Assembly: GCA_964389405.1 (NCBI GenBank)
Contig: CAYMDS010000001.1
Location: forward strand, 1-39,202
Direction: 5' to 3'
DNA length: 39,202 bases
DNA from: an uncultured Gammaproteobacteria bacterium
Lineage (GTDB): Bacteria > Patescibacteriota > Microgenomatia > Levybacterales > UBA12049
Program-made: the position numbers and the translations under genes
The notes under the pieces: model-generated
The model's database searches: none
What the model was told of the DNA's origin: nothing
What the model saw: the letters and a program-made list of their open reading frames with translations, nothing else
Shown here: positions 9,253 to 12,598 of the stretch, one piece after another
Layout: each line of letters starts with the position of its first letter
How positions within the stretch are numbered: the stretch's first letter is position 1

Positions 9253-10512
9253 ATGAGAAAGAAAAAGACTTTACATATCGCCCTTGTTCATTGTGGCTTC
9301 GCCTATTCCGGCGGCGGAGAGCGACTTATTATTGAGGAGGCCCGGGGTTTAGTGAAGAAAGGACACCATGTAGATGTTTTTGTTCCAACATGGAATAAAG
9401 CTTTATGCTACCCAGATGTTCTCAAAAAGATTACAGTTTACACGCTTTTTCCTTTTATTCCCTTGAACATTCCAATGAAGCACGCGTTGGAGCAAGTCTT
9501 CGCTGCATTATTAGTGCCTTTTTATTCATTCCGTTTTCTAAAATACGATATTTTGATAGGTGCTAATCAGCCCGGTGCCTGGATAGCATATTGTGTCTCT
9601 AAAATGCTTAGAAAGCCATATGTAGTTTACATGAACCAACCGAATAGACTTTTATACCCTCGGAAAATTGATATAAAGGAAAAATGGGCAAATATAAAAG
9701 ATTATGCATTTGTCCATTCTTTAATAGTTAAGCTGAAATTTTTCGTTAATATTGCAGATAAAGTATCATTTACAAGAGGGAGCTCGATTTTAGTGAATGG
9801 TGATTACATTGGGAGCATAATCCAAAGAATTTATAAGAAGGATTTCATAACATGTCCGGCTGGCGCTTACCCCCAGGATTTTTCCCTTCTTCGTGTAAAC
9901 CCTCATACAGCTTATGTTGGTAAGTTTAGCTTTCGGAATAAAGACGGCATGAAATTTGATATAGAAAAGCCATATGTACTCATAACGAACAGACATCAGC
10001 CCCAAAAACGATTTGACTATGGAATTAAGGCATTTAATATATTCAGAAAAAGATATCCTGATATGAAGCTTATTATTCCTGGTCCGTTTACGGATGAAAC
10101 TAATAAATTGAAAAAAATCGTCAATAGATTAAAGCTTAATAATTATGTACTTTTTGTCGGACAGATATCTGAGAAAGATTTACAGAAGCTTTATCGTGAA
10201 TCAGTTCTTTATATTTATACAGCACCCGAAGAGGATTACGGGATGGGAATTGTTGAGGCGATGGGATGGGGAGTGCCTGTGGTCGCTTGGAATCATGCTG
10301 GACCGACAGTTACTATAAAAGATGGATTAACAGGCTATTTGGCAAAGCCATATGACATAACAGATTTTGCTGAGAAAATGCATGAGGCTATTAAAATAAT
10401 GCCTGAGAGAGCCGAGATGGGAAAGCGTGCCTGGAACCATGTGCGAGATAATTTTTCTTGGGATAGTCACATAAATATCCTGGAGCGATCTCTGTACCAA
10501 GCCCTAGCCTAA
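9253..10512 (+). CDS. Glycosyltransferase, GT-B fold, family 4-like
   Basis: N-terminal SGGGERLIIEE and a C-terminal E-x7-E motif (PEEDYGMGIVEAMGWGVPVVAWNHAGP). Paralog of 24848..26191. Confidence 0.85.
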   Translation: MRKKKTLHIALVHCGFAYSGGGERLIIEEARGLVKKGHHVDVFVPTWNKALCYPDVLKKITVYTLFPFIPLNIPMKHALEQVFAALLVPFYSFRFLKYDILIGANQPGAWIAYCVSKMLRKPYVVYMNQPNRLLYPRKIDIKEKWANIKDYAFVHSLIVKLKFFVNIADKVSFTRGSSILVNGDYIGSIIQRIYKKDFITCPAGAYPQDFSLLRVNPHTAYVGKFSFRNKDGMKFDIEKPYVLITNRHQPQKRFDYGIKAFNIFRKRYPDMKLIIPGPFTDETNKLKKIVNRLKLNNYVLFVGQISEKDLQKLYRESVLYIYTAPEEDYGMGIVEAMGWGVPVVAWNHAGPTVTIKDGLTGYLAKPYDITDFAEKMHEAIKIMPERAEMGKRAWNHVRDNFSWDSHINILERSLYQALA

Positions 10513-10579
10513 TACAGAAAAGTAATAATAGATAAATTATTTTGATATAAAACTCTAGAATACATTTTAATTTTTAGTG

Positions 10580-10601
10580 ACCAGTATACATGTATACTGG
10601 T
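10580..10601. promoter_or_regulatory. 22-bp perfect palindrome ACCAGTATACATGTATACTGGT, 7 nt upstream of the TrpR-like gene start; candidate operator
   Basis: Read directly from the sequence. It shares the 16-bp core AGTATACATGTATACT with the palindrome at 11034-11059. Confidence 0.6.
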
Positions 10602-10608
10602 TATATAT

Positions 10609-11040
10609 ATGCCTAGAGCATCGAAAAGAAAAATTAGATCAGAGCTCCTGGAAGAAATGCGTGACAACTTCGCATTCCTAATTTCGTCTTTAACTATTTC
10701 ATCTGATATCCAAAGTTTTTTTACAGTTTTTTTGACAGAAGAAGAAAAAATTATGCTTACCAAACGGTTGATGATTCATCTGATGCTTAAAAGCGGTTAT
10801 GAGATTTCTGAAATATGTGCTACTGTCGGTGTGAGTCGGGAAACAATCAGGACACATAAATCAGTTTGGATTACGAGTGATGAAAAATATAAAAAACTTA
10901 TAGCGAAATTAGCACAAAGAAAAAAGACTAAAGAGTTCTGGAAGAAAGTGGAAAAAGCTTTAAAGCCGTTAGAGTATGCTCTAACAGCGAAAACCAATAT
11001 GAAATCCCGCGCGAAACTATTTGATTACTCCTCTGACTAG
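10609..11040 (+). CDS. TrpR/YerC-YecD family helix-turn-helix regulator
   Basis: 143 aa. LTEEEKIMLTKRLMIHLMLKSGYEISEICATVGVSRETI matches the Trp-repressor-like fold pattern (helices plus an HTH ending in SxxTI). Confidence 0.7.
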   Translation: MPRASKRKIRSELLEEMRDNFAFLISSLTISSDIQSFFTVFLTEEEKIMLTKRLMIHLMLKSGYEISEICATVGVSRETIRTHKSVWITSDEKYKKLIAKLAQRKKTKEFWKKVEKALKPLEYALTAKTNMKSRAKLFDYSSD

Positions 11041-11059
11041 TATACATGTATACTAGTCA
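11034..11059. promoter_or_regulatory. 26-bp perfect palindrome TGACTAGTATACATGTATACTAGTCA overlapping the stop codon of the TrpR-like gene; second operator-like site
   Basis: Read directly from the sequence. It contains two ACTAGT hexamers and has the same 16-bp core as the upstream palindrome. No U-run follows it, so a simple terminator is unlikely. Confidence 0.55.
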
Positions 11060-11119
11060 TCCGATGCAAAAAGATTAATTATAGGTAAGAATTTGTTTTG
11101 TTGCTGAGTAATCATTTAA

Positions 11120-11941
11120 TCAGTTACTTAAAACTTGTCTTACGGTCTCATTTAATCTGTCGGCTGCTTCGGTGGTTGCAGCGCTTGGGTAGTTGGCCAT
11201 TATCCATAAAGGTTTATTTGTTTCCCGTCTAGCCTTAAGCACTCTGTTCAGATCATAAATTAACTGATCCTCAGTCCATCCGGCTTTAACATATAAACCA
11301 TGTGTATTAGGTAGTAATGGATTAATATCTACTCCAGAAGTTGCGGCGTATTCAGTATCTCTTACGTCAGGCCCGCTTACAAATACGAATCCTCTTTCTC
11401 CGGGTTTTTCTTCAATCCAGCGTTCTATTTTTTCACCCTTTCCGACTAGAGCATGATTTTCAGCCAGTAATACCGCACCTGTAGATTCCAGTTCTCTTTG
11501 AAATTTCTCGCTCAATCTTTTCCTCCAGCCTCCATTATGTCTTTTTAATACCGGCCAGTGCCAGCTGATAGTAGCATCGGTTTCAGCGACTAGTATTCCT
11601 GTTGCTTTTCGCCAGAAGGGCATCGAAACCGCCAGACTCTGCGGCCAACGCATTAAGTAATTTACAAAAGAATCATTGGCGGCTGGTTTAGGTGAGACAA
11701 TTCTATCTATCATCCAGGGTGGATGGATATTAACAACATAATCCTCTAAAAGATGATCAGAATTTGCTCGTGGTTTACTTAATAATTCAAAAACTGTACC
11801 TGGACTTGGTATTGGTTCATAGGCATTATAACCCATGGATGTGGCGCCAATTATACCTTTTGTTAATGGATCATAAAGCTTTCTTTGTCCTGAAGCGATA
11901 TAGGCTGCTTCTGATAATCCTACTCTAACAATTTCTGCCAT
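11120..11941 (-). CDS. Hypothetical protein (273 aa), no recognisable motif; visibly GC-richer than its neighbours
   Basis: Long ORF with non-repetitive, globular-looking composition (W/P/G-rich). Opposite strand to the flanking glycan genes. Confidence 0.6.
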   Translation of the reverse strand: MAEIVRVGLSEAAYIASGQRKLYDPLTKGIIGATSMGYNAYEPIPSPGTVFELLSKPRANSDHLLEDYVVNIHPPWMIDRIVSPKPAANDSFVNYLMRWPQSLAVSMPFWRKATGILVAETDATISWHWPVLKRHNGGWRKRLSEKFQRELESTGAVLLAENHALVGKGEKIERWIEEKPGERGFVFVSGPDVRDTEYAATSGVDINPLLPNTHGLYVKAGWTEDQLIYDLNRVLKARRETNKPLWIMANYPSAATTEAADRLNETVRQVLSN

Positions 11942-11992
11942 GTTTTATTTTAATTATTCTGTAGCGGATTATTACACAGTTGCAGCCAGGAA

Positions 11993-12598
11993 TCAATATT
12001 CCTCAATTGCCTCGGGGGTTTGGATGGTGAGCTGTCGTGAGCAGGAGTCGTAGTTGCCGGTGGCGTAAACTGCCTTGTCTTTAAACGGAGTAAATGAAGC
12101 ATCGCGTCCGCGATTGAGGTGGATTGTAGTATTATCAGATAATTCGAGAATGTAGCGGTATCTCGGACTGGTATTGTCATCTGGTGAAAGAAAATTGCTG
12201 AAGTATTTAATTATTCTTTGAATTTTTGCAACTACATGATCCGGTTCTGTATCGGTTACTTTAAGAACTTTTACTACTCCTTTATGTGTTTGTACTCCTT
12301 TATCACATAGAGCATGGGTCGTTCCGAAAAAACCGAGAAACGAAAGAGCCAGTGCTACACCCATAATACCAATGGACCCCTTAAGAGTAAATGAAAAAGC
12401 TTTTTGTTTTTTAATTTCTTCAAGAAGTTCTGTAATTCTACGTAGAGGATTACCGATGTGGACATTTATAAGTGTATCGTCATCAGATGTTTCTGAAACC
12501 TTTGTTTTATTTAGGACAGCAGATGTTACGGGATCTTTTTTCACAACTGTTTCGACTTGTGGTGCAGCATTTGATGGAAGCTTAGTAGACTCATCCAT
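11993..12598 (-). CDS. Hypothetical single-pass membrane protein (201 aa)
   Basis: Polar N-terminal region, one TM helix (IGIMGVALALSFLGFFGT) and a ~100-aa C-terminal domain. Lies 51 nt upstream of, and co-oriented with, 11120..11941. Confidence 0.55.
   Translation of the reverse strand: MDESTKLPSNAAPQVETVVKKDPVTSAVLNKTKVSETSDDDTLINVHIGNPLRRITELLEEIKKQKAFSFTLKGSIGIMGVALALSFLGFFGTTHALCDKGVQTHKGVVKVLKVTDTEPDHVVAKIQRIIKYFSNFLSPDDNTSPRYRYILELSDNTTIHLNRGRDASFTPFKDKAVYATGNYDSCSRQLTIQTPEAIEEY

Follow-up and report, generated by a model that had tools for sequence, protein, structure and literature searches.

What purpose is served by two long perfect palindromes that bracket a gene for a TrpR-like protein? 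The question is raised by positions 1 to 39,202 of contig CAYMDS010000001.1 (assembly GCA_964389405.1; this whole stretch of 39,202 nucleotides is referred to as the window), which comes from an uncultured bacterium of the Levybacterales. The gene encodes a 143-residue protein and lies between two palindromes that have a common core. When the locus was compared with those of related genomes, all of them metagenome-assembled genomes (MAGs), the sequences pointed, with a probability of about 0.7, to an autorepressor with a primary operator on its own promoter and a second operator at the 3' end of its gene. The features of this unit are as follows.

10580..10601, no strand: upstream palindrome O_U, a putative promoter-proximal operator; 22-bp perfect palindrome ACCAGTATACATGTATACTGGT
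10593..10598, + strand: TATACT, a -10-like hexamer in the right arm of O_U, ending 10 nt before the ATG
10609..11040, + strand: gene for a predicted 143-residue DNA-binding protein of the TrpR fold; the open reading frame between the palindromes
11034..11059, no strand: downstream palindrome O_D, a putative stop-proximal operator; 26-bp perfect palindrome TGACTAGTATACATGTATACTAGTCA
11038..11040, + strand: TAG stop codon, which falls within the left arm of O_D

Palindromes, protein and promoter

O_U and O_D shared the 16-mer AGTATACATGTATACT and were centred at 10590.5 and 11046.5, respectively, at a distance of 456 bp. O_U ended 7 nt before the ATG at 10609, and was extendable to 26 bp (10578-10603) with one mismatched pair. 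Exactly two copies of the motif were present in the window at up to three mismatches, while shuffled sequences contained 0.21 on average and two copies were reached in none of 100 shuffles. The original prediction, made from the letters of the window, had described this pair and called it improbable by chance, and its description of the sequence was accurate throughout. It had also reported the absence of a U-run, which was borne out: neither palindrome precedes a run of T, and a scan of 10300-11300 called no terminator-like hairpin with such a run. A likeness to the Escherichia coli trp operator, drawn from the two ACTAGT hexamers, was rejected as evidence, since this hexamer was limited to O_D, where its T is supplied by the stop codon. 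In the remaining six genomic copies its place was taken by ACCAGT, CCCAGT or CCAAGT.

The bracket layout was a property of the protein family. It was examined at 57 non-redundant loci, which spanned 25-97% protein identity and many genera of the candidate phyla radiation (CPR), as an exact word of at least 12 nt common to the start flank (68 nt, upstream of the start codon) and the stop flank (77 nt, spanning the stop codon). Such a word was found at 34 of the 57 loci, compared with 0.16% of 4,511 control windows that were drawn from these loci. The orthologs were exactly 143 residues long in G001, a congener of the assembly that contains the window (G000), and in the related genomes G004, G030, G040, G027, and G038 (97-43% identity). 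Distant paralogs with 25-35% identity, of which there were up to five per genome, also had a palindrome before the start and another at or after the stop. The palindrome sequence was lineage-specific, being TGTCCAGTATACTAGTATACTGGACA in G004, TACCACTAATATACTAGTATATTAGTGGTA in G040, and CACTTTAATGATATATATCATTAAAGTG, TGATTCGATGTATTAATACATCGAATCA or ACTTCGATGATTCGAATCATCGAAGT in further lineages, and the third paralog of G000 was bracketed by GGATCATA-AGTTAGYA-TATGATCC. The 26-mer of O_D itself was found at the equivalent place in G001, and with one outer mismatch at the locus L086.

The site sequence varied together with that of the predicted DNA recognition helix. Helices of the form SRET(I/V)R(T/V)H(K/R) were paired with the half-site GTATACT(G/A)G, helices of the form SYETVR(T/S)YQ with GTATA(T/A)TAGT, and helices containing ETI(R/H)WY(K/R) with (A/G)(A/G)TATAT. 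Members of the TrpR family (TrpR, HisR/YerC) bind 20-bp palindromes of lineage-specific consensus and are often autoregulated, and one HisR site has been validated in vitro (PMC9413887). The symmetric sites and the helix co-variation found here are indirect signs that would fit an intertwined homodimer bound to a symmetric operator of ~18-20 bp.

The 143-residue protein is a member of the TrpR family outside the canonical YerC/HisR equivalog. Its residues 20-100 matched the Pfam family PF01371 (Trp_repressor) with 30.3 bits against a cut-off of 27 (E = 4.5e-7), and a profile built from 54 orthologs matched the TrpR-like structural genomics entries 3kor, 3frw, and 3g1c of the PDB with E values of 1.9e-9 to 1e-5, the lowest being that of 3kor (1.9e-9). 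The AlphaFold2 monomer model, with a pLDDT (predicted local distance difference test) score of 84, contained the TrpR helices at residues 11-26, 31-41, 44-62, 66-73, 77-89, and 92-102. When this model was searched against the PDB with Foldseek, the top 30 matches were all TrpR or TrpR-like, E. coli TrpR and 3kor included, with target-normalised TM (template modelling) scores of 0.69-0.82. The protein was composed of an N-terminal arm (MPRASKR), a TrpR core (residues ~10-102) with the helix-turn-helix (HTH), made up of helices D and E, at residues ~62-90, and two extra C-terminal helices (residues 105-126 and 131-142). Residues Met1, Arg3, and Ser5 of the arm and Arg134 of the last helix were invariant in the ortholog group. 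In the search with TIGR02531, the YerC/YecD equivalog model, the protein reached 17.0 bits, below the cut-off of 42.2, while a 101-residue YerC-type protein of the congener G002, used as a positive control, reached 67.6 bits. The gene had been proposed to be TrpR/YerC-like; the TrpR fold is supported by the domain match and the model, and the canonical YerC assignment is not, on account of the low score and the length of 143 residues.

No catalytic domain was found in the protein by Pfam, NCBIfam or the model, and no defence or phage affiliation of it or of its orphan neighbours was found by PADLOC and PHROGs. In public databases, 82 close relatives, from Levybacteria, Curtissbacteria, and other Microgenomates, are labelled 'YerC', 'Trp family regulator' or hypothetical. 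The family as found by profile search contained 2,254 clusters at 50% identity, 746 of them at E <= 1e-10.

The upstream site coincided with a likely promoter. Its centre was located 14-18 nt before the ATG at 27 of the 31 ortholog loci. The right arm of the ortholog upstream sites gave TATACT or TATATT, and many loci had a TTGACA-like box 17-18 nt further upstream. A sigma-70-like promoter that matched at 9 or more of 12 positions and had a -10 element ending 4-10 nt before the ATG was present at 27 of 54 homolog loci, compared with 1.9% of control ATGs; a Shine-Dalgarno-like motif was present at 4 of the 54. From a -10 element placed so near the ATG we infer that the mRNAs have no leader, or hardly any, and that the operator covers the -10 region.

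In the proposed mechanism, the 143-residue protein would be a dimeric repressor with the cognate site (TGACC)AGTATAC-AT-GTATACT(GGTCA). One copy would lie over the -10 element of its own leaderless-type promoter, and binding there would shut off its own transcription (negative autoregulation). The second copy, on or just after the stop codon, would be bound by the same protein as an auxiliary site, which may hold the repressor close to the promoter through a loop of ~456 bp, or may block RNA polymerase leaving or entering the gene. The few further copies would make up a very small regulon, with one site before a YerC-type gene and others inside a tyrosyl-tRNA synthetase (TyrRS) gene and a membrane-protein gene. 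The earlier suggestion of paired operators for autoregulation has good comparative support from the family-wide bracket, the helix co-variation, the promoter overlap, and a motif confined, with one exception, to genomes that have the ortholog.

The part played by the stop-proximal copy is less constrained. The two sites were 454-486 bp apart at 25 ortholog loci. The next gene was co-directional at 39 of 56 loci and convergent at 17, the window included, and no conserved partner or target gene was found among the neighbours, which varied (recF, rpsG, frr, gatB/yqeY-like, prolyl-tRNA synthetase, and others). In one clade only, the copy lay 17-23 nt before the start of a YjeF/NnrD-like gene, and there it could act as the promoter-operator of that gene. 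As a general explanation, a promoter of the next gene was rejected, since it holds for this clade only and the next gene is convergent in the genus of the window. Several downstream genes had their own TTGACA box beyond the stop-proximal copy. This leaves three readings, namely looping, a roadblock that stops read-through from one side or the other, and a high-affinity reservoir site. The extra C-terminal helices of the modelled protein are a candidate oligomer interface.

The G004 stop-proximal site (L011, G004:C15) was shorter, having just one GTATAC unit (GTCCAGTATACTGGAC) and half-sites 10 bp nearer to each other than those of the promoter copy. G004 also had an additional full-length copy inside a ychF-like GTPase gene (L066, G004:C1:160662).

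Copies of the site and state of the locus in related genomes

The assembly G000 comprises 1.28 Mb in 172 contigs with 37% G+C, and is about 90% complete with a reported contamination of 4.5%. It contained seven perfect copies of the 16-mer and one single-mismatch copy, and all eight ranked among its 43 longest hairpin-capable palindromes. Two of the eight flank the gene of the window. Three lie on contig C147 (1.9 kb), where two bracket its gene likewise and the third lies beyond the gene. The other copies were as follows.

C13:172-197: flanked by the 3' end of a Xaa-Pro peptidase gene on one side and by the promoter of a gene of the canonical YerC type on the other
C6:160-181: inside the TyrRS gene, in a variable linker, encoding PVYMYTG; identical to the 22-mer of O_U
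C57:715-730: inside a membrane-protein gene; kept in G002 as GGTATACATGTATACC and absent in G001

The YerC-type gene on C13 was truncated by the contig end, and the site before it was present at the equivalent place in G002. At the TyrRS site, the G002 ortholog was of equal length with 13 of 20 bases in common. Both intragenic copies replace sequence of equal length, which indicates that they arose by substitution rather than insertion. A dispersed repeat or miniature inverted-repeat transposable element was rejected for this reason and because there were only eight copies. Short-form copies (a single GTATAC) or half-site copies in G000 were not found beyond chance.

Among 61 related genomes, the 14-bp core GTATACWWGTATAC was found in five, and control orientations gave no occurrence. 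The ortholog was present in four of these five, with the motif flanking the gene in each; in G001, the two bracketing copies were the only ones. A relative whose genome is 100% complete had three occurrences of the motif that belongs to a distant paralog, two of them bracketing the gene and one ~25-30 nt before a tsaE-like gene. With three copies of the window motif beyond the brackets in G000, the predicted regulons are very small. Motif copies were not near amino-acid biosynthesis genes, and no his genes were found nearby or among the set of sites. The original prediction had set a regulon of promoter sites against copies flanking other small genes or a common dispersed repeat; one copy lies before the YerC-type gene, two are intragenic, and a dispersed repeat was rejected.

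On C13, a second, unrelated hairpin-type palindrome of 26 nt, GCTTCCATGTATTGATACATGGAAGC (L004:202-227), was located 4 nt from the motif copy, between the peptidase and YerC-type genes. The two fold jointly at -39.5 kcal/mol (z = -8.2), and GCTTCCATGTATTGATACATGGAAGC is absent there in G002. The hexamer at the motif centre, ACATGT, was strongly under-represented in G000, with 178 occurrences against 428 expected from base composition, and GTATAC less so (276 against 428).

The locus itself was polymorphic within the genus. In G002, the glycosyltransferase gene (83% amino-acid identity) and a 201-residue gene were separated by ~155 bp, and both the TrpR-like gene and a 273-residue orphan were missing from the interval. 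The orphan adjoins O_D in the window:

11120..11941, - strand: convergent 273-residue orphan gene, 60 nt from O_D; context only, outside the module

G001 had the bracketed gene without the orphan and G000 had both, so that the orphan was an insertion relative to G001 and G002. Contig C147 was a diverged copy of window positions 10408-12046 (77% nucleotide identity, protein 85% identical), in which the bracketed gene and the third palindrome were accompanied by a different orphan of 260 residues (L006:206-988). The two orphans were faintly similar (24% over 107 residues, E = 0.002), and neither had a match in Pfam, NCBIfam, PADLOC or PHROGs. The flanks of C147 were 92-96% identical to G002 and only 77-82% identical to the window, which indicates that C147 probably comes from a G002-like strain binned into the G000 MAG. 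These differences indicate that the unit is gained or lost as a whole. Further afield, the genes flanking the G004 location are absent from G000. Presence or absence of the gene in relatives had been named beforehand as informative: gene and palindromes were found together in G001 and C147, while the G002 locus lacks both.

An orphan palindrome, GTATAATA-AGTTAGTA-TATTATAC, was located on contig C31 of G000 (C31:8585-8608), 33 nt after the stop of the gene for the CCA-adding enzyme. It had the conserved 8-nt spacer of the sites that bracket the paralog on C48, and nearly equalled the stop-proximal site of the G006 paralog. It may be a relic of a lost module, because two other relatives carry a paralog directly after cca.

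Alternatives to the proposed autorepressor

Several observations weigh against an autorepressor with two operators. The correlation between helix and half-site, with three classes of each, ignores shared ancestry and is phylogenetically confounded. G002 retains two motif copies with no ortholog, its syntenic site being empty, so that either the sites can persist once the gene is lost or they are bound by another protein. The promoter of the window scored 8 of 12 with a weak -35 element (TTTTTA), and a stricter scan of 10300-11300 called none. The spacing of the two sites showed no helical phasing (Rayleigh R 0.09-0.13, p ~0.7), although little phase dependence is expected at ~460 bp. About 20% of the ortholog loci had no recognisable stop-proximal copy. 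Finally, the flanks beyond the 16-bp core differed among the copies of one protein, yet symmetrically (ACC/GGT, ACT/AGT, and CCC/GGG), and such symmetric variation is not predicted by a model of protein binding only.

The symmetry of the sites is an argument for a different explanation, in which the palindromes are hairpins or cruciforms that serve as 3'-end, terminator or boundary structures independently of the encoded protein. Arm symmetry was above chance (0.30) to ~14 bp from the centre. At positions 8-10 it was 0.88-0.92 in the stop-proximal copies and 0.58-0.74 in the promoter copies, the former being the more symmetric. The arms were perfect over 11-15 bp, the central 2-4 bp varied freely (AT, TA, CA, TT, CG, and TG), and the variable flanks stayed complementary. 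At one orthologous site a double change was observed, TGACC/GGTCA in G002 against TGCCC/GGGCA in G000. At the six loci with the stop codon inside the left arm, 17 of the 18 stop-codon bases were complemented in the right arm; thus the stop-forced T at position 9 from the centre of O_D is matched by a right-arm A, where O_U has C:G. In addition, six of the eight G000 copies lie 3' of a gene, and the predicted RNA folds had energies of -12.9 to -17.3 kcal/mol (z ~ -3.2 to -3.8).

Nevertheless, hairpins of this kind are very improbable as the explanation, since they give no reason for the start and stop copies to have a lineage-specific sequence in common, or for this sequence to follow the recognition helix. 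One clade kept a mid-arm asymmetry, ACTATTATAC-TA-GTATATTAGT, with a mid-stem T.T mismatch, in both its start and stop copies, which indicates that the sequence itself was selected and not just its pairing potential. Mismatches of the G.T and A.C types numbered 7 and 8 in the stop-proximal copies and 19 and 14 in the promoter copies. This absence of a G.T bias argues against a strand-specific RNA hairpin, which was regarded as unsupported, and together with the conserved asymmetry it indicates a constraint on double-stranded DNA. Two copies lie within coding sequences, and the loci without a stop-proximal copy had no substitute hairpin, with a median folding free energy equal to that of the controls. 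An intrinsic terminator was rejected because the stems are AT-rich, the T-run is absent, and none was called around the gene, while canonical terminators with an A-tract, GC stem, and T-tract are used elsewhere in the genome. A known RNA family was also rejected, the best Rfam match being a microRNA model with 23 bits against a gathering score of 80. Replication template switching 'corrects' quasi-palindromes, and such correction could have produced the flank symmetry without any function. Alternatively, the predicted repressor could have a long symmetric footprint, with its N-terminal arm and C-terminal basic helix reaching the flanks.

A mobile operator-gene-operator cassette, with the palindromes as its ends or recombination sites and the HTH protein as an aid to mobility or as cargo, would account for the unit being present or absent whole, with G002 empty, G001, G000, and C147 filled, and the flanks of C147 close to those of G002. 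The change of gene neighbours from lineage to lineage, the paralogs numbering up to five per genome, and the variable orphan genes that directly adjoin the stop-proximal palindrome also agree with it. Each palindrome is self-symmetric (ACC/GGT in one, TGACT/AGTCA in the other), however, whereas site-specific recombination would leave left/right hybrids, and the difference between O_U and O_D was stable across G000, G001, and L086. The empty G002 site had no solo palindrome and no remnant, and the two intragenic copies, in the genes for TyrRS and the membrane protein, left the sequence length unchanged and hence are not insertions. No linked recombinase was found, the only two tyrosine recombinases of the assembly being on contigs C136 and C30, and the 143-residue protein has no catalytic domain. 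A cassette is clearly improbable on these grounds, and of the original proposal of recombination sites only the gain or loss of the whole unit was retained.

The sites might instead be bound by another TrpR-family protein, such as the 101-residue YerC/YecD-type protein, with the 143-residue gene as target and not as source of the binder. G002 has such a YerC-type gene along with its two motif copies, and the copy before this gene is conserved between G000 and G002. Set against this, all paralogs of the 143-residue type, even those with only 25% identity, are bracketed at start and stop by a palindrome of their own, G001 has just the bracketing pair, and the promoter of the YerC-type gene is overlaid by a small palindrome of another sequence. 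C147 suggests, moreover, that a G002-like strain does carry the 143-residue gene. A different binder is accordingly given hardly any credence.

A broader alternative, which is unlikely and still deserves a hearing, treats the unit as a semi-autonomous CPR module that is gained, lost, and copied whole and diversifies into orthogonal protein/site pairs, up to five per genome. The product would be a site-specific boundary or roadblock protein, less a classical metabolic regulator than one that delimits its own transcription unit and marks a few other places, including sites that arose by substitution in essential genes such as that of TyrRS. The symmetry of the uncontacted flanks would then reflect extrusion of a cruciform or hairpin as part of the mechanism.

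Relation to known systems and significance

The autorepressor proposed here is closest to HisR (B. subtilis YerC; 3kor, 3frw, and 3g1c), which has the same fold and belongs to the same family of small HTH repressors with ~20-bp lineage-specific palindromic operators, and which is frequently autoregulated through a site before its own gene (PMC9413887). HisR has ~100 residues, whereas the present protein has 143, with MPRASK conserved at its N-terminus and a C-terminal extension of two helices. The HisR operator is CACTTTA-N6-TAAAGTG before his biosynthesis and transport genes, in contrast to AGTATAC-AT-GTATACT with CC/GG-type flanks, and the sites of the present family are longer, at 22-30 bp. 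A second copy at the stop codon is undescribed for HisR and present here. In one paralog group (L016/L017, from G013 and G023), the outer arms CACTTTA...TAAAGTG were those of the published Firmicutes HisR half-sites, at a distance of 14 bp rather than 6.

E. coli TrpR (trpEDCBA, aroH, and trpR) likewise combines the TrpR fold (TM 0.7-0.8), a symmetric operator, and a very small regulon, and is autoregulated through an operator overlapping its own promoter, as proposed here. The two proteins have ~15% sequence identity, their operator sequences are unrelated, and nothing points to tryptophan as a ligand of the 143-residue protein. No operator is known at the 3' end of the E. coli gene.

LacI (O1/O2/O3), GalR (OE/OI), lambda CI (OL/OR), and coliphage 186 CI (FL/FR) use a primary promoter operator together with an auxiliary operator tens to thousands of bp away, which in lambda and 186 is located beyond the far side of the repressor gene. 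These looping repressors similarly have two or more cognate operators (here predicted ones) at a distance on one DNA. In the present family, by contrast, the spacing is unphased, the position of the putative auxiliary site is linked to that of the stop codon, and the layout belongs to a whole cellular family and not to one operon or phage. The 'stoperators' of mycobacteriophage L5 gp71 are repressor sites in transcribed regions that stop elongation; they are asymmetric, orientation-dependent, about 30 in number, and phage-borne. Like them, the present sites lie at the ends of genes or within transcription units, positions at which a bound protein could form a roadblock, with several copies per genome outside promoters, but they are symmetric, few, and chromosomal. 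Integron cassettes with attC sites are also short single-gene units with inverted-repeat bounds and presence/absence variation. The present sites differ as simple perfect palindromes of 22-30 bp that are self-symmetric and not hybrid, in no array, and with no integrase nearby. Membership among integron cassettes was rejected, as there was no linked tyrosine recombinase, no hybrid site, and no solo site at the empty locus.

In the literature searched, no published description was found of a stop-codon operator across a large CPR-specific subfamily. The predicted pairs are testable with the purified 143-residue protein and a 26-bp oligonucleotide, and the sets of small orthogonal repressors and operators would be useful parts for synthetic biology. 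The layout points to leaderless promoters with the -10 box inside the operator, and raises the mechanistic question of what an operator on a stop codon is for. Because CPR bacteria are uncultivated, almost nothing is known of their transcriptional regulation. This family displays its predicted binding site twice per gene, so that protein/operator pairs and specificity residues may be read from sequence.

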